Positions 8,772 to 62,585 of a stretch of 64,000 nucleotides of DNA are shown piece after piece. Position 1 is the first letter of the stretch, and the number at the start of each line of letters is the position of its first letter. Both the position numbers and the translations under genes were made by a program. This stretch comes from a virus, in the UHGV virus genome UHGV-1550212; one strand, 5' to 3'. The notes beneath the pieces are model-generated. The model saw only the letters and a program-made list of their open reading frames with translations, was not told the DNA's origin and ran no database searches.

Positions 8772-8805
8772 CTTGTATCTATGTTGTTGATTTTCAATTT
8801 AATAT

Positions 8806-8834
8806 ATTGAACAACATTTGTTGACATTTTGCAA
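8806..8834 (-). promoter_or_regulatory. sigma70-like promoter (TTGCAA-N17-TTCAAT)
   Basis: Upstream of 7944..8771. Confidence 0.45.
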
Positions 8835-13679: not shown

Positions 13680-13722
13680 CTTATTTATGATTTGATGTCT
13701 TGTTATATTATTATATGTTGAT

Positions 13723-13751
13723 ATTGTACAACGCTAAGTGTCATTTTGCAC
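13723..13751 (-). promoter_or_regulatory. sigma70-like promoter (GTGCAA-N17-TACAAT)
   Basis: Upstream of 13110..13679. Confidence 0.5.
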
Positions 13752-15567: not shown

Positions 15568-15600
15568 TATTATGTTCGAATATATGAGGACATATATTAT
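15568..15600 (-). promoter_or_regulatory. conserved structured leader element, copy 3 (core only)
   Basis: Core TTATGTTCGAATATATGAG(G/A)ACATATATTAT with inverted repeat TATGTTC/GAACATA; in the 5' leader of 15304..15540. Confidence 0.45.
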
Positions 15601-15608
15601 ATATAGAT

Positions 15609-15637
15609 ATATTACAACACGCAAATCATTTTTGCAC
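15609..15637 (-). promoter_or_regulatory. sigma70-like promoter (GTGCAA-N17-TAATAT)
   Basis: Upstream of 15304..15540; the conserved leader element lies between -10 and the ATG. Confidence 0.45.
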
Positions 15638-29010: not shown

Positions 29011-29039
29011 TGTTGTAGAGGTTTTATATTATATATTAA

Positions 29040-29068
29040 TATATTACAACATTTGTTGTCAATTTGCA
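29040..29068 (-). promoter_or_regulatory. sigma70-like promoter (GTGCAA-N17-TAATAT)
   Basis: Upstream of 28789..29010. Confidence 0.45.
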
Positions 29069-29155: not shown

Positions 29156-30214
29156 TTACTGCTTCAAGCCTGTGAACAGTTCATACTTGAATGCAGGCCC
29201 TGCTGTGTAAGCCTCAAAGTAGAAGTCACCAATATTGATGCTTGCAATAGCGTCATCGACAGCTTTCTTGTAGCCTACACGTTCAATTGTCTGCTTATCG
29301 CATTTACGCCAATATGTGCTGTGCATCATAAGCGTGGGTGATGCAGCATAGTCTACTGCAAGCTGTTGTTTTGCAGTGTCAATGTGATGTTCATAGATGT
29401 GCACATCATTGCCAGTCCAAATGAACTCTCTTGCCACACAGTTAGTCAATGTTGCAACAATATGTGTAAGCAATGCATATGATGCGATATTGATGGGCAC
29501 ACCAAGACACATGTCACAGCTACGCTGAGTAAGCGCACAGTCAAGCCACATGCTTGGTACTTGAGCAGAATCAAGGCATTCTGCAGAACCATCATGCACA
29601 AGCATGCTATCATTAGCAATCTGAATTCGTTCTTCAAGAGTCATTGGCTGACAATTGAACTGAAACAGCATATGACATGGCGGCAATGCCATCTGAGACA
29701 TTTGCGCAGGATTCCATGCAGACACGACTTTGTAGCGGCCAGTTGGATTGATGACAATGTCTTTAATGCAAGTTGCAAGTTGGTCAAATCCACTGTCATT
29801 GAAGTTGCGCCACTGATACCCATAGATAGGTCCGCAATCACCATACTCAGGTTTGCTGAATTTTGTGTTGTGCAGTTCTGTGCACCAAGTGTCAAAGTCG
29901 ACATCTTCACCTGGATGCAGCTTTTGCCAATGACGATATGCATCCTGATGCCAGAACTTTGTAATGCCAAGCGTGTCAAGCGTTTTGACATTAGTGTCAC
30001 CTGACATAAACCACAGAAGTTCTCCAATGACGCCTTTGACAAACATTCTCTTGGATGTCAACAGTGGAAAGCCTTTACGCAAATCAAATCGCATTGATTC
30101 TACAAACAATGACTTTGTGCGAGGCATGTTTTCACGAGCAGGTTCCTTAAATCTGCCATGCTCAATAACATTATTAAGTACTCTCAAGTACTCAGTGTCG
30201 TGTTTGATATTCAT
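29156..30214 (-). CDS. thyA: thymidylate synthase (ThyA family, dUMP-specific type)
   Basis: ThyA blocks GELLWFMSGDTN, GPIYGYQWR, SAWNPAQMSQMALPPCH, QRSCDMCLGVPINIASYALL (Asn retained), WTGNDVHIY; ~60-aa C-terminal extension. Confidence 0.85.
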   Translation of the reverse strand: MNIKHDTEYLRVLNNVIEHGRFKEPARENMPRTKSLFVESMRFDLRKGFPLLTSKRMFVKGVIGELLWFMSGDTNVKTLDTLGITKFWHQDAYRHWQKLHPGEDVDFDTWCTELHNTKFSKPEYGDCGPIYGYQWRNFNDSGFDQLATCIKDIVINPTGRYKVVSAWNPAQMSQMALPPCHMLFQFNCQPMTLEERIQIANDSMLVHDGSAECLDSAQVPSMWLDCALTQRSCDMCLGVPINIASYALLTHIVATLTNCVAREFIWTGNDVHIYEHHIDTAKQQLAVDYAASPTLMMHSTYWRKCDKQTIERVGYKKAVDDAIASINIGDFYFEAYTAGPAFKYELFTGLKQ

Positions 30215-32779: not shown

Positions 32780-32827
32780 TCTAAATGAGATTTAGATTAT
32801 GTTCGAATATATGAGAACATATATTAT
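32779..32827 (-). promoter_or_regulatory. conserved structured leader element, copy 1
   Basis: ~48-bp element with two inverted repeats (ATGTTC-N10-GAACAT and CTAAAT-CTC-ATTTAG) ending at the ATG of the Rad3/DinG-like helicase. Confidence 0.5.
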
Positions 32828-32837
32828 TTGTAAAAAT

Positions 32838-32866
32838 ATAATACTACAATCAGCATACATTTGCAC
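32838..32866 (-). promoter_or_regulatory. sigma70-like promoter (GTGCAA-N17-TATTAT)
   Basis: Upstream of the Rad3/DinG-like helicase; leader contains the conserved element. Confidence 0.45.
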
Positions 32867-33018
32867 TTTGACATAACTGATTGATACTCAATCAGTTATG
32901 AGTTTATAAAAGTTTTCAAAAGTAGGGTGTTGTTGTTTGAGTAGAGTGTTGCTGATTCTGTCAGCTGTCTTGTTTGCGTTATCGATTGCTTGCAAACTGT
33001 CAGCTGTCATAGAACATC

Positions 33019-33437: not shown

Positions 33438-34319
33438 TTATCGTTTGAATTTGATGAAGTGTTCAGCATCAAGGCCCTCAAATATGTACGGGTCAAGAGT
33501 TTCCCAGAAGTTTGAGTATGTCGTTGTCTTTGCAATACTTGTCTGCTTTGACAAGTTCATGTTTGGATAGCCAAGCATTGCATAGTGTCGCTCATATATG
33601 TGCATTGACGTTGCATTATGCATATAAGCGCCAAGCTTAAGACCAAGTTCATTTGCGACAAGTTCTTGCAACAAAGTGAATGCAAACTGGTCGTTACAGA
33701 AGCCCCAAATGACATCATTGCTTCGCATATATGTTGTCAAGTACAGCTTATCACCACGAACATTGAAAACAAGATTCAATGTGCACGGCATATCTTTGCC
33801 AGTGTAGTTTGCATATTGCGGCTCATAAATGCTAATAACTGCTCGTCTTGTGCATTCATGATTTCGCAAACGTTCAATGACATCTGCAATCTGCTTGTGC
33901 CAAATTGCGCCATACTGTGAATTGACATTGACGCCATCATCACTGAACTGCTTCCAACGAGGCAAATAACGTTCAATGCATTCAACTGCAGGATTGGCTG
34001 TCATATACCATGCAAATTCTGCAGCAGCATTGAGCTTTTTCCATGGTCGTACATCAATCTTGATTTGTCGCTGTGAAGGGTCCTGAATAACTACAGACAC
34101 ATTCAGCAATTCTTTTGTTCGAGTCACTGTTTGTGCATTGTTGCCCTTTGATTCTACAAACTCACCTCTACAATGAAGTTCATACAAAATTGAGCGAAAT
34201 GCTTCTGTTGCAGTGTTTTCAACGATTGTCGTCTGTTGATAGCATAAATTTGACGACAATGCTTCAGCATCATTGTACTTTATGCTGTCATTGTCATAAG
34301 GTGAATTTTTTGTGTGCAT
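33438..34319 (-). CDS. ThyA-family pyrimidine hydroxymethylase/methylase, cytosine-specific type (dCMP hydroxymethylase-like)
   Basis: ThyA-like blocks EFAWYMTANP, YGAIWHKQ, TRRAVISIYEP, DMPCT (catalytic Cys), YMRSNDVIWGFCNDQFAF where the ThyA Asn aligns with Asp; start trimmed to 34319 to avoid a 116-nt overlap. Confidence 0.55.
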   Translation of the reverse strand: MHTKNSPYDNDSIKYNDAEALSSNLCYQQTTIVENTATEAFRSILYELHCRGEFVESKGNNAQTVTRTKELLNVSVVIQDPSQRQIKIDVRPWKKLNAAAEFAWYMTANPAVECIERYLPRWKQFSDDGVNVNSQYGAIWHKQIADVIERLRNHECTRRAVISIYEPQYANYTGKDMPCTLNLVFNVRGDKLYLTTYMRSNDVIWGFCNDQFAFTLLQELVANELGLKLGAYMHNATSMHIYERHYAMLGYPNMNLSKQTSIAKTTTYSNFWETLDPYIFEGLDAEHFIKFKR

Positions 34320-34344
34320 ATTTTGGGATGTTTGTTTTTTATTA

Positions 34345-35439
34345 TCATACAACGATAGTATCTCGTTTGCAATCTGTTTTGTCAAATATTGAACAACAAT
34401 ACGATGCAGATTGTTCTTTGATTTCAAGAGCTTCATCATTATCAAGTGATGAAATGCCATCTATGTATGCTTTTGCATTGCCAGCAATGTCATCATTTGT
34501 TAACAACGCTGCACGACGTTCAGTGCCAAAGAAGCCAAAGCACAATTGATGTTGCAGTGCTTCACGAGAAGTCTTGTCATCAAACTCTGATTTCATGTGT
34601 TGCATAAATTCGACAATATCATCAATGTCGCATTGAGTAAAGTCAATGCACAATTTATGCATGTACTTGAATCGTTTGTAGTCTGTTGCAAGAATTTCTG
34701 GGTGCACAATGAACAACGTCTTTTTGCTGTCTATTGGATTTGCAATGACTGATGCTTGAACATAATCGACAAGCATACCAGATTCACGAAGTTGCTCAAT
34801 TGTTTTGCCAAACACATGCCCAAGCGTGTCATCAAACCACTTCAAGTATGCTTCACTGTCTTCATCTTTTGACGCGCCAACAATGTAAATCTCATTGACT
34901 CCAAGTGCTTTGAGACGAGTATCAGACAACATAGTATTCAATTGATGCTGCACGTACAGCATTGGGCTGCTATGCAAAACCGTTTTAACAATCTCACAAG
35001 CAATGTCCATATATGCATAGTCAAGCTTTGCAGATTTTGACACATACACTGCACGTTGCTGCAATGGCTCAATTGCCGAGCATGTAGTTACAAAGTTGCC
35101 AACACATTCTGCTACTGCAATGTCATGCAAGTCATCTGCAATGTACACAATACTTGACAAGTCATCAAATGTTTGAACAAGTTGCTGAAGCTTTGTTTTG
35201 TAATTGCAGAGCATCAATGACTTGATGTTGCAATTACTTAGCATTGTCTTGATGAGTCGTTGACCTGCTTCAGTGCTGTCACCAGAAATGACATGCACAT
35301 CGCAGTCAAACCAGTTCAGCATGTCAATTGCATGCCGAACACCATATTGCATTTGTTTTGCAAACTTACCAGATTCATTGAACAGCATTTCACCTGACAT
35401 AATGCCGTCAAAGTCACATACGATTTGAAGTCTGTCCAT
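34345..35439 (-). CDS. HAD-superfamily (KdsC-like) sugar-phosphate phosphatase domain protein with unknown C-terminal domain
   Basis: IVCDFDGIMSGEMLFNESGKF (DxDG motif I), VHVISGDS, YIADDLHDIAV (motif IV), resembling KdsC/YrbI-type phosphatases. Confidence 0.5.
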   Translation of the reverse strand: MDRLQIVCDFDGIMSGEMLFNESGKFAKQMQYGVRHAIDMLNWFDCDVHVISGDSTEAGQRLIKTMLSNCNIKSLMLCNYKTKLQQLVQTFDDLSSIVYIADDLHDIAVAECVGNFVTTCSAIEPLQQRAVYVSKSAKLDYAYMDIACEIVKTVLHSSPMLYVQHQLNTMLSDTRLKALGVNEIYIVGASKDEDSEAYLKWFDDTLGHVFGKTIEQLRESGMLVDYVQASVIANPIDSKKTLFIVHPEILATDYKRFKYMHKLCIDFTQCDIDDIVEFMQHMKSEFDDKTSREALQHQLCFGFFGTERRAALLTNDDIAGNAKAYIDGISSLDNDEALEIKEQSASYCCSIFDKTDCKRDTIVV

Positions 35440-35443: not shown

Positions 35444-35749
35444 CTACAATTTTGAAGTTAAGTCAATTCGAATTTTGTCTGCATTGCTTTGGTCTACAAA
35501 TCTGTCATCAAAGAAACATTCAACTACGACAAGCTTCTTTGAATTCACAAATTCAATTAGCGATTTTTGCATTGCATCAAGCTGTTTCATGCATTTGCAA
35601 AAACTGCTGTATGACATGATTTGCTTTGGTGACATATCAAATGCATCCGCAATTCGCTGATGAGCAATCTTTTTTGATGTTGCAATAATGACATCTGCTT
35701 TGTTATCATTTGCATGATTGCCAAATATCGCAATATGATAAACTTTCAT
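35444..35749 (-). CDS. hypothetical protein
   Basis: Start set to ATG at 35749 (MKVYHIAIFG...); alternative start at 35776. Confidence 0.4.
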   Translation of the reverse strand: MKVYHIAIFGNHANDNKADVIIATSKKIAHQRIADAFDMSPKQIMSYSSFCKCMKQLDAMQKSLIEFVNSKKLVVVECFFDDRFVDQSNADKIRIDLTSKL

Positions 35750-35803
35750 TGTATGAGTGATTTTACTGTTATACATTTATGTTATATATGCACATTGTGC
35801 CAG

Positions 35804-38800
35804 TTAACAAATTGATGATGTGCCATCAGTGTTTGCTACAACTGTCAATGCGCTATCAAACTCATCTTGCTGTAACACATGGTCAACTATGAGTGTTTTG
35901 CGAATTGCAGAAAGCTTAGTAAGCAACTGCATCAACACTTGCTGATAATTGATGGTGTTGACGTCATGCTCAGCGCCAACAATCTGCCCGTTGCTAAGCT
36001 TGCCGCTAATTTCATCAATGAGCAAGATGTTGCCAACTTTGTTTAAGCGTTGAGTCAAAATGAGATGCACGATTGCAAGACCTGCGAAAGTCCCTTCCAT
36101 ACCAGACATTTGACTTACACTTCGAATTGACTTCGAGCCCATCAAGTCAATCATCTTTAGCACATTGTTGTCATTGATGTCAAAGAACACTCGGTAGTTC
36201 AATGAATCAAGCAAATCATTGAGCTGTGCATTCAGTGATGTTGCAATTGCTGCAAAGACATATGAAACTAAGCCTCGTTTGCTTGTGCACTGCTTATATG
36301 CATTGTACACCAAGTTTGCAATGTTCCACTTTTTCGAAGCTTGCAAATCTTTCTTGAGAGCTTCAATTCGCACATTGTTTGCTGACAAGTCTGCTTGCAT
36401 TGTTGCAATTTCTGCATTGATGCTTAGCAGTTTTGAGTTTGCTTCAGTTTCATGCTGCTTAGCATCATCAATGTCGACTTGCAATGCAGCGTTTGCCACA
36501 ATATGCTGCTGAGTTTGCTGTGCATGTTCAAGTGCAAATGCTGCAGCAGTCTTGTCAATCTCAAGTTGTTTAAGAGTAGACTCATATGATGCTTTCTTAT
36601 CATATTCTGCTTGAGCAATTTCAAGTTCAGCATTTATTGCAGCCAGTTCTGATTCTACTGCAGATTTTGATTGCAATACATCTTGCTTTGCTTGTTCAGC
36701 TTTACGTTTGATGTCTGCAAGTTGATTTGTGATATCTGCAATTTGCGTTTTGACTGCTTCAACTTCAAGCAATGTTGCTGCAGTAGCCATTGGCTGTGCA
36801 ATGAATGCATCCAAGTCTCTTTGCGCATTGACTACAGTTCTTTGCAAGTCATTAAGCTTTTCTGCATGCATATCATATGCAGCTTTATGTGCTGTATTCA
36901 GTGCAGCAATTATTGCATTTGAATCTGTGACATCAATGATTGCTGCTTGCAATTGCTCAATCTCATACTTCAAATTGCCAATTTTGACAACATTCTCATT
37001 GAATTGCTCTGTCTTTTGCGCGTATTCTTGACGCAACTTAGCAAGCTCAGTTGACAACCACAGCTTGTATGCTTGCCCTGTGCCAGATGTCAAATCATTT
37101 GTGCACACAGGACATTTATCATTTTCAAGTTGCTTTTGCTTGTCTATAACATTGTCGATGTTTGTTTTTGCAGCAGATACTTCTGTTCTAAGTGCATTTT
37201 GAACAGTGTTGATGTCTTCAATTTGCTTTTGCAAAGCATCTATTTTTGCCCGAGTGTCTGCATTATATGACTTGCCAAGATTTACCAGCACAGAATCAAT
37301 GCGCTGCTTTGCTGCATCATATGCAAGCTTTGATTCATCAAGCTTTGTTCTGTACAATGATTCTGCATGCGCAACTTCTTTCTGCACTTTTGCAGATAGC
37401 TCATTCTGTTTTGTAAGCAGCTCAGCATATGTATTGTGCAGCTGTGAGCCAGATGCTATGACATTTGTGTATGCTGCATTAGCTTCATTGTCAATATTAG
37501 TGAGTTGTTGCTCAATCTGCGCTTTTACTGTTTGCAATTTAGACATGTCTTGCAATGCAAGTGCAGCAATGTCAAGCTCAACTTTGCGAATCTTTGCAAC
37601 GATGCTATCGACATTTGCTGTTGCATCTTCTACAGTTAAAATATCTGCAGGAATTTGATGCAGTCTTTTTGAGAGCTCTTCTACTTTTGCACGTGCTTTT
37701 GTAAGTTTTGCAGACCATTCCCTTTGATTATCTTGTCGTAACTGCAAAGAGTCATTGAGTTCATTGCAAGTTGTATTGAGAGACTCAAGTTCTGCTTTTA
37801 TTGCGACATCAGTCAATGCGGGCTTACTAAGGCCATCAAACAATGCGGCCTTTGCAGCATCATTAGAATTGCCCAGTTGCACGAATGTGTTGATGCCAAG
37901 AGTATCAAGCAACCAGTCATTCAATGAATTTGAATCCATTGCAATGATTTGGTCAAGTAATGTCTGATTGATGCAGACATATCGCGACAATTCCCAGATA
38001 GAACCAAAGATTGCGTATAGCGTGTCTTTGATTTCATGCTGTGGCACTACGTAGTCATCTGACAATCTTACAAGCTGCACAGTCTCATTGACTGCTGACA
38101 CGTTATCTCGCCATGAGCCATCTGCATTTATTCGAGAGCCCCGTTTGAATCTACGTTCAAGTGTTCGAGTTAATTTGTAGTGAACATTTTGACCAGCTAC
38201 TACATGTACAAATACACAAGATGCTTCAAGCTTATCATATGACTCATTGTCAATCAATTTGTCATTGAAGTATGTCAAAGCGTTCTGCTTTGTTGCTGCA
38301 GAAGACTGTCCAGCGTCAATAAAGCCAGTCAGCAGCCATTTAATGAGTCTGAAGATTGTTGTTTTGCCATTGCCGTTGTTGCCTCTAACTTGTGTAAGCT
38401 GTGCAAGATTGTCAAAGCTGACATCGACATCTTTCAATGCCATGAACTGATTTGCTTTGACATTTTGAATGACGTATTTTGCAACTTCAGTGTCAAAAGA
38501 CAATTTATCAATTTGCTCATCAATCAATGACTTGAACATGTCAACAAACTGCTGAGCGTCTTCAGTAGCAACTATAGCATTGCGTTCAATGTACGCATTG
38601 ACCCAGTCAAGTGCAGCATCTTTAAGCCATTCAGCAGTTTGAACTTTTTGCAGCAAATTGTCGCCATTTGCATCTACAGCATTGATTGAATCAATGACAG
38701 CAGAATCATACAGAATGTCAATTGCGGCAACAACGTATGAACTTACAAGATTCTGTGCAATGCGCTCAACAATGCCAGACAGTTCGGGCTTTGTGACCTT

Positions 38801-39730
38801 TGACTTGATTTTGATTTTGTTGATGCGACCAGGATTGATGAGTGCAATCTTATCTGTTTTGATGTCATTGTCAATTGTGATTGTATGATAATGCACAAGC
38901 TGCTCAAGCGAATGCCACTCTACTACAATTCGCTTGTTGTCAATATCGATGTCAAGCAAGTTGTAGCCATGTTCTGCAGTGCCCTGTTGCGTTGCAGTGT
39001 CATTCAACAAATAGTCGCCTTCACCAAAATCTCTGACAATTGGCGAGCCGCAGTATGTCAATGTCTTGGTGCCAGAAGTCCATATTGCATGTTTGTGAAT
39101 ATCACCCATTGCAACAAAGTTGCTGTGAAACTGTGTTGCATCTATACGACTGTCATTGTCACCACGAACAATGCAGTCATCAAAGTTGACGCAATTCTTT
39201 ACAGGGTCATGGAACAGCTCAATAACACACATTGATGACAATGCAGCAATCTGCGATTCGTCAAGTGATGCCCAAGGCGAATATGTGCCACCAGACCACT
39301 TCTCATTTTGAGCCCATACTGCAGCAGCAAAACCAGGTGCAAGCAGTTCAACTCTTGAACTGTTGATATACTTGATTCGCTTGTCATCAATTGCAGTTAC
39401 AAGCTTGTCAATGCTATCTGTCCACTGCATTTGTGAACCATCACCAGCATCAAATGTGTTATCACGTTGCTTCAAATCATGATTGCCAGCAGTAATGACA
39501 ATTTGAAGCTTGTCATTGACTTCAAGCATGCCTTTGAGCAGCTTAACAAACAGCGACTCTTCAAGTGAATTGCTGTTCCACTGCTCAAACACATCGCCAA
39601 CAATAAACACAAACTCAACCGACTTTGCTTTGTCAATTAGTTGTTTGTTGATGTGCTCATATTCTACGAAACGTCGTAAATGCCCTTGTCGAACATTATA
39701 TTGAATGTCTGCTATGTGAAGTGCTTTCAT
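35804..39730 (-). CDS. fused SbcD-SbcC (Mre11-Rad50-like) nuclease/ATPase
   Basis: N-terminal calcineurin-like phosphoesterase motifs (HIADIQ, IVGDVFE, TAGNHD, GDIHKH); Walker A GNNGNGKTT; long coiled coil with CPVC zinc hook; C-terminal LLIDE Walker B. Confidence 0.8.
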   Translation of the reverse strand: MKALHIADIQYNVRQGHLRRFVEYEHINKQLIDKAKSVEFVFIVGDVFEQWNSNSLEESLFVKLLKGMLEVNDKLQIVITAGNHDLKQRDNTFDAGDGSQMQWTDSIDKLVTAIDDKRIKYINSSRVELLAPGFAAAVWAQNEKWSGGTYSPWASLDESQIAALSSMCVIELFHDPVKNCVNFDDCIVRGDNDSRIDATQFHSNFVAMGDIHKHAIWTSGTKTLTYCGSPIVRDFGEGDYLLNDTATQQGTAEHGYNLLDIDIDNKRIVVEWHSLEQLVHYHTITIDNDIKTDKIALINPGRINKIKIKSKVTKPELSGIVERIAQNLVSSYVVAAIDILYDSAVIDSINAVDANGDNLLQKVQTAEWLKDAALDWVNAYIERNAIVATEDAQQFVDMFKSLIDEQIDKLSFDTEVAKYVIQNVKANQFMALKDVDVSFDNLAQLTQVRGNNGNGKTTIFRLIKWLLTGFIDAGQSSAATKQNALTYFNDKLIDNESYDKLEASCVFVHVVAGQNVHYKLTRTLERRFKRGSRINADGSWRDNVSAVNETVQLVRLSDDYVVPQHEIKDTLYAIFGSIWELSRYVCINQTLLDQIIAMDSNSLNDWLLDTLGINTFVQLGNSNDAAKAALFDGLSKPALTDVAIKAELESLNTTCNELNDSLQLRQDNQREWSAKLTKARAKVEELSKRLHQIPADILTVEDATANVDSIVAKIRKVELDIAALALQDMSKLQTVKAQIEQQLTNIDNEANAAYTNVIASGSQLHNTYAELLTKQNELSAKVQKEVAHAESLYRTKLDESKLAYDAAKQRIDSVLVNLGKSYNADTRAKIDALQKQIEDINTVQNALRTEVSAAKTNIDNVIDKQKQLENDKCPVCTNDLTSGTGQAYKLWLSTELAKLRQEYAQKTEQFNENVVKIGNLKYEIEQLQAAIIDVTDSNAIIAALNTAHKAAYDMHAEKLNDLQRTVVNAQRDLDAFIAQPMATAATLLEVEAVKTQIADITNQLADIKRKAEQAKQDVLQSKSAVESELAAINAELEIAQAEYDKKASYESTLKQLEIDKTAAAFALEHAQQTQQHIVANAALQVDIDDAKQHETEANSKLLSINAEIATMQADLSANNVRIEALKKDLQASKKWNIANLVYNAYKQCTSKRGLVSYVFAAIATSLNAQLNDLLDSLNYRVFFDINDNNVLKMIDLMGSKSIRSVSQMSGMEGTFAGLAIVHLILTQRLNKVGNILLIDEISGKLSNGQIVGAEHDVNTINYQQVLMQLLTKLSAIRKTLIVDHVLQQDEFDSALTVVANTDGTSSIC

Positions 39731-39731: not shown

Positions 39732-39781
39732 TTCTAAATGAGATTTAGATTATGTTCGAAATATATGAGAACATATATTAT
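39732..39781 (-). promoter_or_regulatory. conserved structured leader element, copy 2
   Basis: Near-identical to the 32779-32827 copy (one A insertion); immediately upstream of the SbcD-SbcC ATG. Confidence 0.5.
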
Positions 39782-39789
39782 ATGTTGAT

Positions 39790-39818
39790 ATTGTACAACA
39801 TATGTTATCATTTTGCAA
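39790..39818 (-). promoter_or_regulatory. sigma70-like promoter (TTGCAA-N17-TACAAT)
   Basis: Upstream of the SbcD-SbcC gene; leader contains the conserved element. Confidence 0.55.
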
Positions 39819-40155
39819 GCATTTTGATGATTGCATCTATCACAGTTTCACTGAGCAAGTAGTAGACAACGCTTATCAGCAATGATATCAGTACTGCAGC
39901 TGTGATAAATTGCAACGCATTCACAATTGCACGCACAAATGTTATCTGCGTGTTGTATGCAAGCACTATGCAGCATAGCACAATAATGACACACCAGACT
40001 ACAATTGCATATGCAGGCATCAATGAATTTGTCCATATGCAGTACAATACAGTAATTAGCATCAAAAATGCTATTGCTCTGATAACTGACACAATGATGT
40101 CTATGTAAGGCTTCATTGCACGCAAATGAACTCTTGGTTTATGTTGCTTCATCAT
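39808..40155 (-). CDS. multi-pass membrane protein
   Basis: 115 aa, highly hydrophobic. Confidence 0.5.
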   Translation of the reverse strand: MMKQHKPRVHLRAMKPYIDIIVSVIRAIAFLMLITVLYCIWTNSLMPAYAIVVWCVIIVLCCIVLAYNTQITFVRAIVNALQFITAAVLISLLISVVYYLLSETVIDAIIKMLAK

Positions 40156-41390
40156 GACTTTATGTACAATTCTGCAAGTTGTCTGGTGTACAGTCGTGGA
40201 TTATGATATGCTTTCCAATACGCAGTAGACTTTATTGCAGCAAGAATTTCATCATAATGTTTGACTGCTTCTGCTACAACTTCATCAAGCACGCTCAAAT
40301 CTTCTACACTGACAAGCAACCATTTTTCTACAATATCAATGAACTCCTGATTGCAATTGAAGCCATACTTGTAGTTGCAAGTATCAAGTACAAGTGGAAT
40401 GCAATCATTTGTCAATGCTTCAAAAAATCTACGAAGACTGAAACAATTCTCATCATATGATGGAATGCTCAATGTAAACTTGGCAGTCTTGATGAGTTGC
40501 AAATACTCTTCGTATGGAATCAGAGGACCATTGTGCTTCCATTGATTATTGTGTCGTCTTGTCGTGTACTTGAACAAAAACTTTGAATTGTCAAGTTCAC
40601 AAAGATGGTCCATGCGTAAAATGTAGTTATAGCGGTCTCTTCTGTCAGGCCAACTGTCAGTCATCGCAAACACAAAGTCTCTTTGCTTGTCACATTTTGC
40701 TGACATACCTCTATGCTGACACATGCAATACCAATATTGCTGCGATGGGCTGAACTCAAACTTTGAATGATGCTCACTTCCATCTTTGCATTGCTGAACA
40801 TAAATGTTGTCAGGCACAAAGTGAAAATAAAAGTGTCGAATTTGCAAGTCATTGATGTAGTCAAGCTTATGCTGCAATGGGTCTTCACAGAAATTGTAAC
40901 ACTGAATATGCTTTGCTGCTGCGTACTCAGCAACTATGAACGTGCACATCCATTGCAATGCAATATCTTCACTCTTCAAAAAGTTTACAAGCGGCTCATT
41001 TGGATGCGCTTTGCATTCATTGAACATTTTGTACCACTTGCATTGCTCCATATCGTACTTTGATACTGTATTGCCATTAAAGAACGACACAGTGTCAATT
41101 TTGAATGCATCAAGTTGTTTATGCACAATGTCAAGTGCTTGTGCGTATGTGATTGTCTCATCAGACATTATCTGCGCAAACTTGATTGGATGCGCATGCA
41201 AATTTGCGATAGTGTCTGCCGACATTTTACGCTGTGTGTGATAATCGACATACAAAAACTGACACTTGTCTGTAAGCAATTCAAGCATTGCTACAGATTT
41301 CCATCGAATTGCTTGAAAGAAATTGAAGTGTGCAGTTTGAAAGATGAGATGCGTAGGTTTATCAGAATGAGTCAAAGTTTGCATGGACAA
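40152..41390 (-). CDS. putative glycosyltransferase-like protein (cassette copy A1)
   Basis: Paralog of 44432..45988 (shared EDPLQHKL, PSQQYWY, FTLSIPSYDENCFSLRRFFEAL...CIPLV); the last block resembles a GT-B C-terminal motif. Confidence 0.4.
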   Translation of the reverse strand: MSMQTLTHSDKPTHLIFQTAHFNFFQAIRWKSVAMLELLTDKCQFLYVDYHTQRKMSADTIANLHAHPIKFAQIMSDETITYAQALDIVHKQLDAFKIDTVSFFNGNTVSKYDMEQCKWYKMFNECKAHPNEPLVNFLKSEDIALQWMCTFIVAEYAAAKHIQCYNFCEDPLQHKLDYINDLQIRHFYFHFVPDNIYVQQCKDGSEHHSKFEFSPSQQYWYCMCQHRGMSAKCDKQRDFVFAMTDSWPDRRDRYNYILRMDHLCELDNSKFLFKYTTRRHNNQWKHNGPLIPYEEYLQLIKTAKFTLSIPSYDENCFSLRRFFEALTNDCIPLVLDTCNYKYGFNCNQEFIDIVEKWLLVSVEDLSVLDEVVAEAVKHYDEILAAIKSTAYWKAYHNPRLYTRQLAELYIKS

Positions 41391-42547
41391 ATGTCGCAGT
41401 TATGTTGATGTTTGTGTTTATTTATGAAGTCATATGTCACTGCAAAAAAGTGCTTTGCAATGTCATATCGAGTTTTCAAATATGCTGCTTGGCGTTCACA
41501 AAACGCTGCATAAATGTCTGGGTGTCGTTTGAATGCAGCAATGCGTTGCTGTACTTGTTCTGCAGAATGTACATATGACACTTTGCTCAAATATGCATCA
41601 TCTGCAAATAATCGTCTGTCTTTGTCAACTGCGCAATCAACAAAAGTTGCAATTCGTGCAACAATGGCTTCACCAACACGATTTGGCATCAACCCATATT
41701 GCTCATATTGTTGGTCACCGATAGCAATGTGCGCTGCTGCATATGACATTGCATATGGCACACTATAAAATGGCACACTAAAATCAAATGAGCAATTTGA
41801 CTGTAGTAGTTGCGTTTGTGCATCAGACAATCTACTTGTCAAGTTGCCTGTATGTTTGTGCTCACCAAGAAAACTTGAGCGACAACCTGAATCTACATAG
41901 TATCGAATGACTTTGTTTATGCGACTGTCAGATAGCATATGCCAATCTCTTGTAGCATATATCAAGTCTACTGTTTTTGCACCAATATGACGAGGCTCTA
42001 TCGCAACATTGCTGTATGTTGGCAGCATGAACAATGGCAGCCATTTGACATTGTTGAACACTGAATGTTCATTTGACAAATTCATGCACTGGCTAAGTTC
42101 AAGTACTGGCTCATCATACACGCCATGCAGTTCAACTCTGCCTGCATGCACAAAGTTGACACGCTTAAATGGAAATCGCATATCAGTGCAAACCGTCATT
42201 CTTGCTGCAGTAGACATTCGCCACATAGCATGCAGCTTAACAACTGCTTCGGCTTGAGGTCGAGGCAGCATATTTAGCAAATCAATCCAGCCACCCCACA
42301 AAATCCAAACATCATTTGAACAGATGTTGAATTGCAAACTCAATATGTCTTCTACTGTTGCAGCAATGATGTCATGCCCATTGATGCTTGCAAGGTGCTT
42401 TCGTTGATTTGCAATAAGAATGACTTGACTGAACGGAGACTCTGGAAATGACACAAGCGCCTTTGCAAACAACACGGGTTCTTGTGATACCAAGTTGTTT
42501 GAGTATGGGTCGATTATGCAATCAAGCTTGTGTATGAAAAGTCTCAT
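41372..42547 (-). CDS. hypothetical enzyme-like protein (cassette copy B1)
   Basis: Paralog of 45985..47151 (shared N-terminus LFI.K.D, TDxRF.F, L.PNR). Confidence 0.45.
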   Translation of the reverse strand: MRLFIHKLDCIIDPYSNNLVSQEPVLFAKALVSFPESPFSQVILIANQRKHLASINGHDIIAATVEDILSLQFNICSNDVWILWGGWIDLLNMLPRPQAEAVVKLHAMWRMSTAARMTVCTDMRFPFKRVNFVHAGRVELHGVYDEPVLELSQCMNLSNEHSVFNNVKWLPLFMLPTYSNVAIEPRHIGAKTVDLIYATRDWHMLSDSRINKVIRYYVDSGCRSSFLGEHKHTGNLTSRLSDAQTQLLQSNCSFDFSVPFYSVPYAMSYAAAHIAIGDQQYEQYGLMPNRVGEAIVARIATFVDCAVDKDRRLFADDAYLSKVSYVHSAEQVQQRIAAFKRHPDIYAAFCERQAAYLKTRYDIAKHFFAVTYDFINKHKHQHNCDICPCKL

Positions 42548-43481: not shown

Positions 43482-43530
43482 TGGCAGGTTTCTTGCTTTG
43501 TAAAGCTTGGATAGAGGATGGATTTTATAT
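43431..43530 (-). ncRNA. candidate ~100-nt small RNA or transcription attenuator (speculative)
   Basis: Defined only by promoter (-10 at 43537-43542) upstream and a strong hairpin/U6 terminator at its 3' end; no sequence family recognised. Confidence 0.2.
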
Positions 43531-43536
43531 GTTGAT

Positions 43537-43565
43537 ATTGTACAACATGCAAAATGCATTTGCAT
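43537..43565 (-). promoter_or_regulatory. sigma70-like promoter (ATGCAA-N17-TACAAT) with adjacent 17-bp tandem repeats
   Basis: Followed ~55 nt downstream by the terminator-like hairpin 43438-43481. Confidence 0.4.
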
Positions 43566-43601: not shown

Positions 43602-43817
43602 TCATTTTGCACAGTCTGAGGCAATCAAATCTTTGTCAAAGCATTCATCTATAATGTCTTCAATAAGATACGCTTCGACATTGTTAAGCTTCAAGATATC
43701 TACGAGTTTTGCTTTGATATCGCAAGCTAATGCAGATTCAACTGTATGCAATATGACTGATGATGCGACATGCTTGTCTGTCATCATTTGTAATTGCTGT
43801 GGTGTTACTCTACTCAT
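43602..43817 (-). CDS. hypothetical small protein
   Basis: 71-aa ORF with 4-nt overlap to the upstream kinase gene. Confidence 0.35.
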   Translation of the reverse strand: MSRVTPQQLQMMTDKHVASSVILHTVESALACDIKAKLVDILKLNNVEAYLIEDIIDECFDKDLIASDCAK

Positions 43818-44386
43818 GCGCCAAGTTCAGCTAAGCATTTTAGCACATTGTCTTGCAGACTTACATTGTTGTCGATTTCGACAATATGCAATGGTGAGTT
43901 CTTTCGCCACTCATCATATGCAGCAATCATTTTATTGCGTTTGTTGACATCAATGTTGACATCGCCACAAAAGTTATCAACAAAATCTGGTGCAACATCA
44001 CGCTTGCATAAGAACACTATATGCGGCAATGTTGCAAGCTTCTTTTCATATGCTTCAAAGAATGCTTGATGCTTATCAGTGTGCAACTCTTTGTAAAGCG
44101 TTGTGTTAAAGATTTGATGTGTGATGAACGAACGGTCACACAAAAATGTTGCTTTGCCAAAGCCTTTAGAGTCATTTCCAATGAACTCTAAGAAGAAGCG
44201 CCAATCATAAAAGAACGCTTCATTGAGGTCCCAAGGTTCGGGCATTGGGTCATCACCTGACTCATGCTGTTGCCACCAAGAACGAGATGTTCGTTTGCAA
44301 TTGATAAACCATGGGCGCCACTTCATCAATTCATTGATGAGTGTTGTTTTGCCTGAAGCTTCTACACCTTCAAATATCGCTATCAT
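43814..44386 (-). CDS. P-loop deoxynucleoside monophosphate kinase-like protein
   Basis: Walker A IFEGVEASGKTT and a CDRSF (DRY/DRS-like) motif as in thymidylate/dNMP kinases. Confidence 0.6.
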   Translation of the reverse strand: MIAIFEGVEASGKTTLINELMKWRPWFINCKRTSRSWWQQHESGDDPMPEPWDLNEAFFYDWRFFLEFIGNDSKGFGKATFLCDRSFITHQIFNTTLYKELHTDKHQAFFEAYEKKLATLPHIVFLCKRDVAPDFVDNFCGDVNIDVNKRNKMIAAYDEWRKNSPLHIVEIDNNVSLQDNVLKCLAELGA

Positions 44387-44411: not shown

Positions 44412-44440
44412 ACAGTACAACGTAGTTATGCTCATTGCAC
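44412..44440 (-). promoter_or_regulatory. weak sigma70-like promoter (GTGCAA-N17-TACTGT)
   Basis: Upstream of the dNMP kinase gene; -10 is a poor match. Confidence 0.3.
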
Positions 44441-45988
44441 TTCTACGAATGGCTCTTTCAACACAAAGCTGTCACCATTGCAACATGCGGCTGAGCCATC
44501 GTCTGCATCAAGTGCACATGACATATCAGACTTGCAGAACTTGCAATATAAACATGACCATGCATGACTCATGAAGTTGTTTGCTTCACAAATTGCGCAA
44601 CGCTCATGCATAAGTGCATTGTCGCAATTATCACAAGACTTCTTGATTGGCACAGTTTTGTTGATGTATGCAAGATGCAATGCAATATCATACACAAAGT
44701 CACCCGTATATTGCTGAATGAAATCAGTATGCCACAACTCTTTTAACAATTGTGCATGTCTATATGGCTGAACAATGTCTTCAAGATGCTGCAAGTCATC
44801 ATCGCTAACCATGAGCTTCTTAATGACAAATTGTTTGAACTGTGGCCATCTGTCAAACATATAGAGTTTGCATGAGTTGTGCACAAGTGGAACACAGCCA
44901 AGCACAATGCTTTCACAGAATCTACGCAAACTAAAACAGTTTGCATCATATGACGGCACAATCAATGTGAATCTGCTATGCTTGATGAGTTCAAGGTATG
45001 TGTCATATGGCAGTAGCTTATCTGACAATTGCTGTTGTTGTTTGTCTCTGCTGAAAAATCTGAACACAATACCCTTGTCAATTGCATCTTGATTGTGCAG
45101 ATGCATGAGTTTGTTGATGAGTTCTGTGCGTTCAGTTTTGTCTCGCCAAGTATTCGTCAATGCAAATGCAAAATTCAGTCGCTTGTCATCAAACGTCGCT
45201 TCAATATCATTCCAAGTTTTGTCATGCAAATACCAGTATTGCTGTGATGGGCACCATCCATAATATGCAATAGCATCTTGTTCTGCTGTAACGTCATACA
45301 CATATGCAGAATTGTATTCAAGGCCAAGCCTTTTGACGTTGTTGCAGTCATGAAAGTACCAATGCTGCACTTTGAATATCTTTGATGCACTGAATGCGCT
45401 TTCATATGGCCCTGAATAGCGATAGTCAATGTAATTGAGCTTGTGCTGCAATGGGTCTTCGACAAAGTTGTTTATGACTGTGCCTTGTTGTTTGCCCTTA
45501 GTCTTGCGAGCATTCAATGCAACATTGTATTGCATGATGACTGACAGCATCTCATACACTACATACATGAGTGCTTTGTAGACTGAGCCTGCTGCGTCAA
45601 TTAGTGGCAAATCACGTTTGACTGATGTAGCGCCAAATGTCTTGCAATATGCAGAAAATGTGTCAAGTTCTGCTTGCTGAAATGAATTGCATGCACCATT
45701 GAATATGTTGAATGTTGCAATGTAGCTCATATTGCAAGATGTCATTGACATATCAAGACGCTTCATAATGTCGACAATGCGACATTGAGCAAAATCTGAC
45801 ACATCAACATATTTGACATGATGGCCTGATGTAGTCAAGCCATCTGCGACATCTTTCATCTGTGGCACAAAGCCTACAACAATGAATAAGTCATCTTTGT
45901 TTGCTCGTTCAAACATTGCTGCACTTTTCCAAGTCAATGAATTGAAAAAGTCTATGTAGCCAGTTTGAGTGATTATATGCGTTCTCAT
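44432..45988 (-). CDS. putative glycosyltransferase-like protein (cassette copy A2) with Cys-rich C-terminal extension
   Basis: Paralog of 40152..41390 (EDPLQHKLNY, PSQQYWY, FTLIVPSYDANCFSLRRFCESIVLGCVPLV); extra CDNCDN...C cluster. Confidence 0.4.
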   Translation of the reverse strand: MRTHIITQTGYIDFFNSLTWKSAAMFERANKDDLFIVVGFVPQMKDVADGLTTSGHHVKYVDVSDFAQCRIVDIMKRLDMSMTSCNMSYIATFNIFNGACNSFQQAELDTFSAYCKTFGATSVKRDLPLIDAAGSVYKALMYVVYEMLSVIMQYNVALNARKTKGKQQGTVINNFVEDPLQHKLNYIDYRYSGPYESAFSASKIFKVQHWYFHDCNNVKRLGLEYNSAYVYDVTAEQDAIAYYGWCPSQQYWYLHDKTWNDIEATFDDKRLNFAFALTNTWRDKTERTELINKLMHLHNQDAIDKGIVFRFFSRDKQQQQLSDKLLPYDTYLELIKHSRFTLIVPSYDANCFSLRRFCESIVLGCVPLVHNSCKLYMFDRWPQFKQFVIKKLMVSDDDLQHLEDIVQPYRHAQLLKELWHTDFIQQYTGDFVYDIALHLAYINKTVPIKKSCDNCDNALMHERCAICEANNFMSHAWSCLYCKFCKSDMSCALDADDGSAACCNGDSFVLKEPFVEVQ

Positions 45989-47151
45989 GATTTGAATGTT
46001 TGTTCAAGAATTGTATAGCACTGTGCAATCATTGTTGCAAGAGCTTTTTGCTGAAGCTGTTTGCAATTTGAAGATATTGTGTATTGCTGACGCTCAGTTG
46101 TAGTACTGCTTAATGTCGCAAATTGCAGGTACTCATCTTCTGACATGATATCAGCAAACAATGCAGACAATTCATAATCTACAATGACATTTGAGCAGTT
46201 TGCAAGTACGCCTTCAACCCATCGATTTGGCAACAAACATGCTTGCACATACAATGAATCGCCGACTACAAGATTGCACATTGACTGCGACATTACATAC
46301 GTCATCATGTCATATGGCACTTTGTACTTAAGTGTGAAGTTTTGTGCTGCTGACTTAATTGCTTGCAGAATTGTGTCATCAAGATATGATGTTATAAGGC
46401 AAGTATTGTATGCCTGCATAATGTAACGCTCAATCACGCTTCTACGATACTCGTCAAGATATGTGAAACCTGCACAACTTGCACAACATGCATATTGCTG
46501 CTTTATGTCAGCAAAGCTACACACATGCGCTTCAATTGCATTTTGCATTGTTGCTTGTCGTTTGAGCAATCTTGGCTCTTTAATGCATTGAAGCTTCAAT
46601 GCATTGACTGCTGCAATGATTTGCAATGGCACAAACACGCATTGAGACTCATCAAGCCAAGCATACTTGAGATTTTTATGTTGACACAGATGCGTAATGT
46701 TGTCTTTTTGTGATTCTAAGTACTCTTTGTAATTATGCAATCGCTTTGTCAATGTGCACTCTTTGTCAAAATCAAATCGCAAATCAGTTGTTAGTGTAAA
46801 TTTGCGAACATTTGACAAGCACCATGCTTTGAATGCATTCCACAGAACATCTTGCTGAAATTCTGAACAATGTTCAAGAGCAGCCTTTGAGCCCTGCCAG
46901 AATATTGCGCAATCATCTGATTTTGCACACTTCAGCATATCTTGCCATGCATGTATGCTATTGATGATATGCACTTTATTATGCACAAGCTCATTAAGTG
47001 TTGCATGCTTGTTCTCAGGGTCGCCAAACACGTATACTGTATCAAACATTGTTTGAACAAACCCTGCAAATGCAATGGGTTCTGTATGTTTAAGATGCTG
47101 TATGTCTGAACGCACACATGTGTCAAATTTCAAAATGAAGAGTTTGCTCAT
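45985..47151 (-). CDS. hypothetical enzyme-like protein (cassette copy B2)
   Basis: Paralog of 41372..42547; promoter at 47181-47210. Confidence 0.45.
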   Translation of the reverse strand: MSKLFILKFDTCVRSDIQHLKHTEPIAFAGFVQTMFDTVYVFGDPENKHATLNELVHNKVHIINSIHAWQDMLKCAKSDDCAIFWQGSKAALEHCSEFQQDVLWNAFKAWCLSNVRKFTLTTDLRFDFDKECTLTKRLHNYKEYLESQKDNITHLCQHKNLKYAWLDESQCVFVPLQIIAAVNALKLQCIKEPRLLKRQATMQNAIEAHVCSFADIKQQYACCASCAGFTYLDEYRRSVIERYIMQAYNTCLITSYLDDTILQAIKSAAQNFTLKYKVPYDMMTYVMSQSMCNLVVGDSLYVQACLLPNRWVEGVLANCSNVIVDYELSALFADIMSEDEYLQFATLSSTTTERQQYTISSNCKQLQQKALATMIAQCYTILEQTFKS

Positions 47152-47848
47152 ATGCTTTGCAATTATCTATTACATGTTGATATTGTACTTCATCTATGAT
47201 GTGATTTGCAATGACACCATATGACGTGTCATACATTGGCATCTTCTCATATGACAATGCTGCGTCAAGATTGCATATCACATAATTGCAATGCACAATG
47301 TCATCTACATTGTCACTAACTGCTACGATATTGACGCAATTTGCAAGAAATGCATCATCAAAGTCTACTTGATTGCATGCAACCTCATAATCTGCAGCAC
47401 TTCTTGGGTACCAATATAACTCAATGCCGGCACTACTAAGTAGTCGCAAGCCATCTATGTGATGATACAAGTCAACAAAATGCACTTGCTTAACGCCTGC
47501 TTGCAAAATAAGCTTTGCGCAATCAATGCATGGACTATATGTTACATATAGCACTGCGTCATTTGCAGTCGCATTGCCATATTTGCACAGCTTCATCAAT
47601 GCATTTGATTCTGCATGCAAAACTTCTTTGTTGGTTTTGATGCCTGCTGATGTTGCATGTTCACAACAATTTGACATGCCAGTTGGCATGCCATTGTAGC
47701 CATCTGAAATTATGCAGCCATCTTTTACAAGCAATGCGCCGACTTTTGCTCGCTGAGCATGTGAATTTAATGACCAGAGCTCAGCCATTTTAAGATATAT
47801 GAGATTTCGTTGAAACCACTTTGTTTCAGACCAAGTTAGCCATTTCAT
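47123..47848 (-). CDS. dCMP deaminase (zinc-dependent cytidine/deoxycytidylate deaminase family)
   Basis: HAESNAL and YSPCIDCAKLI zinc-binding motifs; ~90-aa C-terminal extension. Confidence 0.8.
   Translation of the reverse strand: MKWLTWSETKWFQRNLIYLKMAELWSLNSHAQRAKVGALLVKDGCIISDGYNGMPTGMSNCCEHATSAGIKTNKEVLHAESNALMKLCKYGNATANDAVLYVTYSPCIDCAKLILQAGVKQVHFVDLYHHIDGLRLLSSAGIELYWYPRSAADYEVACNQVDFDDAFLANCVNIVAVSDNVDDIVHCNYVICNLDAALSYEKMPMYDTSYGVIANHIIDEVQYQHVIDNCKAYEQTLHFEI
47181..47210 (-). promoter_or_regulatory. sigma70-like promoter (TTGCAA-N18-TACAAT)
   Basis: Upstream of 45985..47151, inside the 3' end of the dCMP deaminase gene. Confidence 0.45.
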
Positions 47849-49235: not shown

Positions 49236-49264
49236 GTTCGTATTGTTTTATCATATATGAATAT

Positions 49265-49293
49265 ATTGTACAACATGTATTGAGCTTTTGCAC
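49265..49293 (-). promoter_or_regulatory. sigma70-like promoter, proximal of a tandem pair (GTGCAA-N17-TACAAT)
   Basis: 29 nt upstream of the GT-B gene ATG (49235). Confidence 0.5.
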
Positions 49294-61089: not shown

Positions 61090-61127
61090 TGTTGTAGAGG
61101 TTTTATATCATATATTGATATATGATA

Positions 61128-62495: not shown

Positions 62496-62500
62496 TGTTA

Positions 62501-62552: not shown

Positions 62553-62585
62553 GTTAATAAACATCATTCAGTGGTTGATGACTTG

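Follow-up and report, generated by a model that had tools for sequence, protein, structure and literature searches.

We analysed a stretch of viral DNA 64,000 nucleotides (nt) long from UHGV virus genome UHGV-1550212, hereafter the window, in which nearly all genes lie on the minus strand. The gene under study, HAD-X, is an open reading frame (ORF) on that strand at 34345-35439, with an ATG start and 364 amino acids (aa) followed by a stop codon. Read in the direction of transcription, the block that contains it runs from a repeat motif through an Mre11-Rad50 fusion, ORF110, HAD-X, the ThyA homolog ThyA2, ORF118 and a related repeat (32793-32882) to a DinG-like helicase, with a canonical ThyA and an RNase T-like exonuclease further along. 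This order was kept in contigs whose HAD-X proteins are only 59% and 33% identical, including one of 153.7 kb. A first-pass annotation of the same DNA had placed the ORF at exactly these coordinates and had described a KdsC-like HAD phosphatase domain of about 130 aa fused to a second domain of about 220 aa, next to a cytosine-type ThyA homolog. The two-part fusion and the adjacency were borne out, HAD-X lying 25 nt upstream of ThyA2, while the domain lengths had to be revised: the HAD domain spans about 150-155 aa (aa 1-155; 34975-35439, minus strand) and the second domain about 210 aa (aa 156-364; 34348-34974, minus strand).

Four full-length homologs of HAD-X (P0001-P0004, at 96, 59, 37 and 33% identity) retained both the two-domain architecture and the gene neighbours. 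Against two approximately 95%-identical strains, the ratio of nonsynonymous to synonymous polymorphism (pN/pS) was 0.02-0.03 in the N-terminal domain and 0.13 in the C-terminal domain. Because full-length homologs keep the two-part architecture and pN/pS is low, HAD-X is a real, conserved gene under purifying selection in both domains. The region had no megablast match in INPHARED. A word-indexed protein search with HAD-X returned P0001 and P0002 only, with MA9V added once a profile was used, and among 50,697 phage records searched by tblastn the HAD clade was confined to Sphingomonas phage PAU (two records) and Chryseobacterium phages MA9V-1 and MA9V-2.

The N-terminal HAD domain

Residues 6-140 of HAD-X aligned nearly gaplessly with KdsC/YrbI structures in the PDB (phmmer; 2p9j, E 1e-4; 3ij5, E 1.8e-3; 2r8e, E 1.8e-2), and the protein matched TIGR01670, the NCBIfam model of the KdsC phosphatase subfamily, over model positions 4-140 of 154 (E 1e-9). 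A full-length AlphaFold2 (AF2) model, which is informative for the HAD half only and has low confidence overall (predicted local distance difference test, pLDDT, 55.7), was compared with the PDB by Foldseek. All of the top ~35 matches were KdsC-family proteins (KdsC/YrbI and KDN-9-phosphate phosphatase), with a probability of 1.00 and target-normalised TM scores of 0.5-0.6. Searches of Pfam and PHROGs gave nothing significant; the sole Pfam match, MBTPS1_4th (E 0.026), was dismissed as noise.

Each of the motifs quoted in the first-pass annotation was found, namely DFDG (aa 9-12), SGEMLFNESGKF (aa 15-26), ISGDS (aa 51-55) and YIADDLHD (aa 99-106). Motif I is D9-x-D11, motif II is S52 (Thr in homologs), motif III is K83 and motif IV is D102-D103-x-x-D106. 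In a seven-sequence alignment with relatives down to 22% identity, D9, D11, K83, D103 and D106 were invariant, Ser/Thr52 was conserved and Asp102 was present in most sequences. HAD-X has both the residues that mark the HAD superfamily (DxD, S/T, K and an acidic pair) and its Rossmann-like core fold. As phmmer, TIGR01670 and Foldseek agree, we assign the N-terminal domain, on sequence and model, to the KdsC/YrbI-type capless (C0) HAD phosphatase fold with its four catalytic motifs intact. The earlier KdsC-like assignment had been made dependent on the catalytic Asp pair, and since D9 and D11 are in place, the objection that this pair might be missing fails.

The likeness to KdsC did not extend to membership of the family. 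The bit scores of HAD-X against the curated models, with their cut-offs, were 38.5 v 106.95 for TIGR01670, 31.2 v 208 for NF007019 and 26.3 v 180 for KDN-9-phosphate phosphatase. The Arg of the KdsC 'TGR' or 'SGR' signature, which follows motif II, was present in every aligned KdsC structure (2p9j, 3ij5, 3i6b and E. coli KdsC), whereas the corresponding residue is Asp54 in HAD-X (S-G-D) and Asp in all 12 phage or AfhE-associated homologs. Where KdsC has the hairpin motif F-N-V-x-D-G, HAD-X has M-Q-Y-G-V-R. Because the scores reach only about a third of the cut-offs, or not even that, the TGR Arg is replaced by Asp and the hairpin motif is changed, HAD-X is by these measures not a true KdsC. 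Compared with KdsC/YrbI as a whole (TIGR01670; 2p9j, 3ij5, 2r8e, 1k1e), it has the same capless C0 fold, including the beta-hairpin region, and motifs I-IV align almost without gaps over ~135 residues; but identity is only ~20%, HAD-X carries a C-terminal fusion, and it lies in a phage DNA-modification context rather than beside KdsA, KdsB and KdsD. In KdsC the TGR Arg probably binds the sugar-acid carboxylate, and its loss may have lifted the requirement for carboxylate binding.

Association of the HAD clade with AfhE

AfhE is a bifunctional arabinose-5-phosphate kinase and uridine diphosphate (UDP)-arabinose pyrophosphorylase that combines nucleoside triphosphate (NTP)-transferase and kinase domains. 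In phages RB69, DLP3 and HY126 it works with AfhF, a small phosphatase of the HAD type that cleaves off the 5-phosphate, and their UDP-arabinose route, which leads to arabinosyl-5-hydroxycytosine, is not an ulosonic-acid route (PMC13326640). In PAU, gp216 belongs to the same HAD clade as HAD-X (31% identity, E 4e-22) and begins at the stop codon of gp215, a protein with an NTP_transferase N-terminal domain and an APH-type kinase C-terminal domain; the SIS isomerase gp212 is encoded close by. Full-length homologs of gp215 (~28-29% identity, 99-100% coverage) were found in 372 of the 50,697 phage records, mostly T4-like Straboviridae bearing a cluster of SIS, HAD, ThyA-homolog and glycosyltransferase (GT) genes. 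The four INPHARED records that contain the HAD clade (PAU twice, MA9V-1 and MA9V-2) all carry AfhE as well. PAU DNA has been reported to be extensively modified (PMC7824862).

The complete genome of MA9V-2 (218,539 bp) encodes one SIS protein, one AfhE-like protein and one KdsC-like HAD, with no AfhF-type HAD and no further ORF containing HAD motif I. Its HAD, MA9V2_142, lies between the gene for the ribonucleotide reductase (RNR) alpha subunit and the thymidylate kinase and ThyA-like genes; it is annotated as KdsC, which is probably a mis-annotation as a phosphatase of 3-deoxy-D-manno-octulosonate (Kdo)-8-phosphate. PAU gp216 and MA9V2_142 resemble HAD-X in the HAD domain (31-32% identity), in an SGDS/TGDQ signature, in having a C-terminal extension and in the presence of SIS and AfhE-like genes in their genomes. 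They differ in their C-terminal extensions, for which no homology to the HAD-X domain was detected, and MA9V2_142 also has a Cys/His-rich N-terminal extension of ~125 aa.

An alignment scan for AfhE in IMG/VR gave 80 loci, and the ORFs within 3 kb of AfhE were screened with local hidden Markov models (HMMs). An AfhF-type HAD was present at 30 of the 80 loci and a KdsC-like HAD at seven, none had both, and 43 had neither. KdsC-like and AfhF-type HADs were thus mutually exclusive at these loci. At locus L071, a standalone KdsC-like HAD of 183 aa is encoded between AfhE and a ThyA homolog of the 5-hydroxycytosine (5hoC) type, which is the slot that AfhF occupies in Acj61. Proteins in which the HAD is joined to a second module are encoded at L015 and L095; the module is homologous over its full length to VR5_042 and Acj61p079 (E 1e-15 to 1e-18), whose genes hold the synteny position of the proposed first arabinosyltransferases. 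These HAD-GT fusions (L015:763-2391 in 3300025168_000033; L095:1293-2954 in 3300018410_000011) stand in an operon of 5hoC-type ThyA, HAD-GT, SIS and AfhE genes, preceded in L015 by a dTMP-kinase-like gene, and we found no earlier description of such a fusion in the literature searched. Like HAD-X, they combine an N-terminal domain of this HAD clade (E 1e-22 to 1e-25) with an added C-terminal module; unlike HAD-X, whose C-terminal domain is an orphan, their module is a homolog of the putative arabinosyltransferase 1 and their ThyA is of the 5hoC type. All AfhE-associated KdsC-like HADs had [S/T]-[G/D/S]-D-x(2-3)-G in place of the KdsC TGR.

HAD-X had no detectable homology to AfhF itself (phmmer with VR5_045 and Acj61p081, E > 1). 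AfhF, including DLP3 gp81 and RB69 gp51, is nevertheless a HAD-superfamily phosphatase of the same Mg-dependent class, is likewise encoded beside a ThyA-family cytosine-modifying enzyme, and co-occurs with SIS, an AfhE-type enzyme, a nucleotide kinase and GT-B transferases. AfhF differs in being ~130 aa long, of the 1xpj/GmhB-like lineage and with a DIDxT motif, whereas HAD-X is KdsC-like with an extra domain of ~210 aa. Moreover, the HAD-X lineage has its HAD gene ~60 kb from SIS and AfhE, and pairs it with a ThyA homolog of the 5-hydroxymethylcytosine (5hmC) type rather than the 5hoC type.

Neither the window nor loci L003-L009 contained a homolog of AfhE, SIS or AfhF in tblastn and local HMM searches, in which the SIS model left out VR5_047, a lipoprotein. 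The IMG/VR contig 3300045988_149023 (175,564 bp), which is 95.4% identical to the window at the nucleotide level over 21 kb around HAD-X, did contain an AfhE-like gene. Its product is 32% identical to MA9V2_235 over residues 1-579 (E 2e-59), matches Pfam NTP_transferase and conserves the kinase motifs HGDPNTSN and IDPRGYFG; a SIS gene lies ~3 kb away. Both genes are ~60 kb from HAD-X, ~30 kb past the edge of the window. The first-pass annotation had proposed looking for a co-occurring cytidylyltransferase in the complete genome. A nucleotidyltransferase does co-occur, but it is the AfhE-type protein encoded with the SIS isomerase on this contig and not a cytidylyltransferase of the KdsB type. 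In all, co-occurrence of the HAD clade with an AfhE-type enzyme, SIS, a ThyA homolog and GT-B was seen in PAU, MA9V-2, L015, L095, L071 and this contig of the window's own species.

The neighbouring ThyA homologs

The gene downstream of HAD-X was listed as a long ThyA-like ORF (33438-34460, 340 aa) that would overlap HAD-X by 116 nt. In three related contigs the ThyA-like gene encodes 283-293 aa and starts beyond the HAD-X stop codon. Since the ThyA proteins of the relatives match a start at Met48, we place the true start there, giving a gene of 293 aa at 33438-34319 (minus strand) that does not overlap HAD-X and leaves the gap of 25 nt.

This enzyme, ThyA2, was assigned to the ThyA family by thymidylate synthase matches in Pfam and PHROGs and by alignment. 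Its active site keeps C146 and D169, with N177 replaced by Asp, and it carries the signature of a dCMP hydroxymethylase of the T4 gp42 type: its segment MRSNDVIWGFCND agrees at 10 of 13 positions with that of the T4-like dCMP hydroxymethylase CkP1 gp42 (MRSNDVVFGFRND). We applied the published criterion for separating 5hoC from 5hmC enzymes (PMC13326640). The 5-hydroxy-dCMP synthase types that have an experimental basis show MRSQN... or MRSNN..., D169N and a Glu at position 143, where ThyA2 has Asp. A role for ThyA2 as a 5-hydroxy-dCMP synthase was rejected because of D169 and the position-143 signature. Because the ThyA homolog adjacent to HAD-X carries the gp42-type signature, the base that it supplies is probably 5hmC.

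A second ThyA gene at 29156-30214 (minus strand) encodes a canonical dUMP-type thymidylate synthase (QRSCD...N177; Pfam E 3.6e-76, supported by motif comparison), which reaches 352 aa owing to two large insertions relative to E. coli ThyA. With both types in the window, the phage appears to encode a thymidylate synthase and a dCMP hydroxymethylase-type enzyme, in addition to a dCMP deaminase (47123-47848, minus strand; dCMP_cyt_deam_1, E 6e-21).

The C-terminal domain

An exhaustive profile search with residues 150-364 against 1.84 billion representative proteins returned P0001, P0003 and P0004 only, all of them HAD-plus-domain proteins. An AF2 model of the C-terminal domain alone had a pLDDT of 69 (75-90 in the core) and a predicted TM score of 0.69, and suggested an alpha/beta fold with a parallel five-stranded sheet at approximately aa 175-330; the last ~35 aa, which contain Cys, were modelled with low confidence. 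The model matched nothing in BFVD at E 1e-3 or better, and the sequence profile found nothing meaningful in the PDB. Approximately ten positions were invariant among five homologs, scattered and with no obvious catalytic cluster. The phosphate-binding loops of SIS proteins and a match to Pfam PF01380, both sought in the domain, were absent. A common origin with the C-terminal extensions of PAU gp216, MA9V2_142 and L015 was rejected, the hhalign probability being 0.3% or less. Because the extensions of the more distant relatives are not detectably homologous, we regard the domain as a lineage-specific alpha/beta orphan, constrained and with no recognisable catalytic motif. With low confidence, we suggest that it is a non-catalytic accessory with an oligomerisation, partner-binding or regulatory role.

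Gene neighbourhood of HAD-X

Immediately upstream of HAD-X is ORF110, a small conserved ORF of 110 aa (35444-35776, minus strand) that holds the same position in L003, L004, L005 and L007 and matched no family in Pfam, PHROGs or NCBIfam. It is preceded by the fused Mre11-Rad50-like protein of 1308 aa (35804-39730, minus strand), identified by Metallophos and AAA_23 matches and by synteny, and the first gene of a putative operon. The fusion of Mre11 (calcineurin-like phosphoesterase) and Rad50 (AAA_23/SMC) was kept in the relatives and in MA9V-2, where it is annotated as 'metallo-phosphoesterase' (MA9V2_127). MA9V-2 (OR513085.1) further shares with the window a split family-B DNA polymerase (PolB), two ThyA types, a helicase after the ThyA-like gene and a DEDDh exonuclease. 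Given these shared replication and nucleotide-metabolism genes, the window phage seems to have its relatives in the PAU/MA9V group, with a member of the Bacteroidota as its possible host.

An intergenic motif of ~42 nt, belonging to repeat family D1/D2/D6 with at least eight intergenic copies, recurs upstream of minus-strand gene blocks. Read on the plus strand as TATTATATGTTGATATTGTACAAC-N12-TTTGCA, it occurs at 3476-3517, 8792-8833, 13709-13750, 15595-15636, 29027-29068, 39776-39817, 43523-43564, 47165-47200 and 49251-49292, with relatives at 32793-32882 and 61085-61128. Its likely role is that of a promoter or regulatory element specific to the phage, which would partition the window into operons, and the copy at 39776-39817 (plus strand) is a candidate promoter for Mre11/Rad50, ORF110, HAD-X, ThyA2 and ORF118.

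Upstream of the HAD-X block lie four GT-B-like genes, a candidate P-loop nucleotide kinase and the dCMP deaminase. Two of the four are paralogous GT-B/exostosin-like putative GTs on the minus strand, at 40152-41384 (Exostosin_GT47 and Glyco_trans_1_2, below gathering score) and 44432-45988 (Exostosin_GT47, E 5.6e-6, also below gathering score), which share a 43-nt repeat (40855-40897 and 45429-45471); the former adjoins the Mre11/Rad50 gene in L003 and L007 too. The others are a putative DNA glycosyltransferase at 41372-42547 (minus strand; phrog_7922 'beta-glucosyltransferase', E 5e-8) and a GT-B-like candidate at 45985-47151 that shares phrog_32512 with it. The presence of four candidate GTs suggests decoration with several sugars. 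The kinase candidate (43814-44386, minus strand) is dTMP-kinase-like on the strength of an N-terminal P-loop only (phrog_761, E 1e-5; TIGR00041, E 0.006). Among the larger ORFs scanned in the window, no Pfam match named a KdsA- or KdsB-type enzyme.

Elsewhere in the window, PolB is split into an exonuclease/N-terminal part and a polymerase C-terminal part (10096-11601 and 6510-7802) with ~2.3 kb between them, and one of the intervening ORFs is a dUTPase/dCTP-deaminase-fold gene (9216-9707); PolB is also split in MA9V-2 and Acj61. Two direct repeats of 55 nt (62498-62552 and 62583-62637), 96% identical and 85 nt apart, are intergenic and close to a strand switch. A 117-nt repeat (2839-2955 and 56839-56955, 71% identity) lies within two DUF7487-containing genes (1777-2976 and 55801-56967), which we therefore regard as diverged paralogs 54 kb apart.

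Discussion

We propose, as the explanation that we find probable though by a modest measure, that HAD-X is a KdsC-derived replacement of AfhF, acting as the sugar-phosphate phosphatase in an Afh-like nucleoside diphosphate (NDP)-pentose pathway that feeds the GT-B enzymes decorating modified cytosine. HAD-X would be a Mg2+-dependent phosphatase from the KdsC branch of the capless HADs, recruited into making the activated pentose with which C5-modified cytosine in the phage DNA is glycosylated; UDP-arabinose or something close to it is the likeliest such donor. If the steps follow those published for Afh, the phage SIS isomerase would convert ribulose-5-phosphate to arabinose-5-phosphate, and the kinase domain of the AfhE-like protein would phosphorylate C1. 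HAD-X would then take off the terminal 5-phosphate, the step of AfhF in RB69, DLP3 and HY126, after which the AfhE-like nucleotidyltransferase domain would form the NDP-sugar and the GT-B enzymes encoded in the window would put the sugar onto DNA. The modified base would come from the adjacent gp42-type dCMP hydroxymethylase, so that the product may be pentosyl-5hmC. The 8-phosphate of Kdo-8-phosphate is the former 5-phosphate of the arabinose-5-phosphate used by KdsA, and a KdsC scaffold would thus be pre-adapted to a D-arabino phosphate tail.

The first-pass annotation had raised the possibility that the phage supplies a sugar donor for DNA glycosylation, and the genomic context backs this strongly, since the HAD clade adjoins, or is fused with, DNA-glycosylation genes elsewhere. 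The Kdo or nonulosonic-acid pathway that it had in mind for such phosphatases did not hold up, given the sub-cut-off scores, the Asp in place of the TGR Arg, the lack of KdsA- or KdsB-named Pfam matches among the larger ORFs scanned, and partners that are those of the AfhE/AfhF route.

Several observations weigh against our proposal. SIS and AfhE were seen on a 95%-identical relative and not in the 64-kb window, and at ~60 kb from HAD-X, which sits amid DNA-repair and nucleotide-metabolism genes, their link to it is one of co-occurrence and not adjacency. An AfhF-type HAD was not found in the window or at the SIS/AfhE loci but may lie elsewhere in the remaining ~110 kb of the genome, and more than half of the AfhE loci in the census had neither HAD type nearby. 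ThyA2 is of the 5hmC type, whereas every published Afh system acts on 5-hydroxycytosine, which means that the sugar, the linkage or both may differ. The low confidence of the full-length model also counts here, and the C-terminal domain has no explanation within the proposal.

We considered whether HAD-X could instead act on nucleotides, dephosphorylating dCMP, dTMP or a modified deoxynucleoside monophosphate and so biasing the pools towards modified cytosine alongside the dCMP hydroxymethylase. HAD nucleotidases do occur in phages, for example the 5'-deoxynucleotidase of T5, the window is rich in nucleotide-metabolism genes, and in all family members whose neighbourhood could be seen the gene that directly follows HAD-X is the gp42-type ThyA homolog, while the MA9V-2 homolog lies between RNR and thymidylate kinase genes. 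However, AfhF too adjoins a ThyA homolog in the published arabinosylation clusters, so this adjacency is no sign of a nucleotide substrate. All family-level matches were to sugar-acid phosphate phosphatases (KdsC, KDN-9-phosphate phosphatase) and none to nucleotidase-type HADs, the clade is elsewhere fused to a GT or placed beside AfhE and SIS, and a dUTPase-fold enzyme, possibly a dCTP/dUTP hydrolase, is already encoded at 9216-9707. A nucleotide-pool phosphatase is therefore unlikely, and a generic nucleotidase identity is disfavoured. We give still less credence to HAD-X as an auxiliary metabolic gene that serves host envelope sugar synthesis and encodes a true phosphatase of Kdo-8-phosphate (or of KDN/Neu5Ac-9-phosphate). 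The best HMM and structure matches are indeed KdsC/YrbI, and the MA9V-2 homolog is annotated accordingly, but the scores are far under the cut-offs, the TGR Arg is Asp in every phage member, no KdsA/KdsB-type enzyme was named by Pfam among the larger ORFs scanned, and the conserved partners are AfhE, SIS, GT and ThyA homologs.

The probable co-transcription of HAD-X with the Mre11-Rad50 fusion, near helicase and exonuclease genes, could also point to a nucleic-acid end phosphatase (3'-phosphatase) working in DNA end processing with Mre11-Rad50, the DinG-like helicase and the RNase T-like exonuclease. T4 Pnkp uses a HAD phosphatase domain for its part. Proteins joining polynucleotide kinase (PNK) and HAD domains have been noted in jumbo phages (PMC7824862). 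HAD-X lacks a kinase domain and does not resemble PNK-type HADs, its alignment is KdsC-specific down to the beta-hairpin region, and such a role does not account for the HADs that in other phages are fused with, or lie beside, glycosylation genes; of the possibilities weighed here we hold it the least probable. A different question, and one compatible with the proposed AfhF-like role of the HAD domain, is whether the C-terminal domain is itself catalytic, whether as a sugar-phosphate isomerase of the SIS type that has diverged strongly or as one half of a GT-B enzyme, which would make HAD-X bifunctional. The purifying selection on the domain, and the real GT at the same position in the L015 and L095 homologs, speak for this. 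The SIS phosphate-binding motifs are absent, though, the few invariant positions are scattered, hhalign and hmmsearch connected the domain with neither the L015 GT nor the extensions of PAU and MA9V, and a separate SIS gene is present in the genome of the same species; we consider a catalytic C-terminal domain improbable.

If HAD-X does replace AfhF, a further and more tentative suggestion follows, which we think possible but would not expect to hold in full. The lineage, and probably MA9V, would join a gp42-type dCMP hydroxymethylase to an Afh-like NDP-pentose pathway with a KdsC-derived phosphatase, yielding DNA that contains pentosyl (arabinosyl)-5-hydroxymethylcytosine, and the orphan C-terminal domain may physically couple donor synthesis to the nucleotide-modifying or DNA-processing machinery of the operon. 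Arabinosyl-5hmC was reportedly suggested for RB69 at one time, before the base there was reassigned to arabinosyl-5-hydroxycytosine.

That phages glycosylate C5-modified cytosine with a phage-made UDP-arabinose-like donor is already known from work of 2025-2026. What appears to be new is a KdsC-type HAD in the phosphatase slot of a distinct group of large phages, its fusion to a DNA glycosyltransferase (L015, L095) or to an orphan domain (the HAD-X lineage), and, in both the HAD-X lineage and MA9V, a partner hydroxymethylase of the gp42 type, from which pentosyl-5hmC is predicted.

Glycosylation of cytosine is one of the main ways in which phages counter restriction enzymes and CRISPR nucleases. 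It took until 2025-2026 for the arabinose pathway of SIS, AfhE, AfhF and GTs to be solved, and this was for T4-like Proteobacteria phages alone. In PAU, MA9V, several IMG/VR contigs and the HAD-X lineage, the last met in metagenome assemblies whose labels suggest the human gut, the phosphatase step would have been filled independently by a KdsC-derived HAD. The signature [S/T]-G-D-S/Q-x-x-G in place of TGR could keep annotators from mislabelling such genes as lipopolysaccharide enzymes. If the pathway is coupled to 5hmC instead of 5hoC in this lineage, a new modified base is predicted in its DNA.

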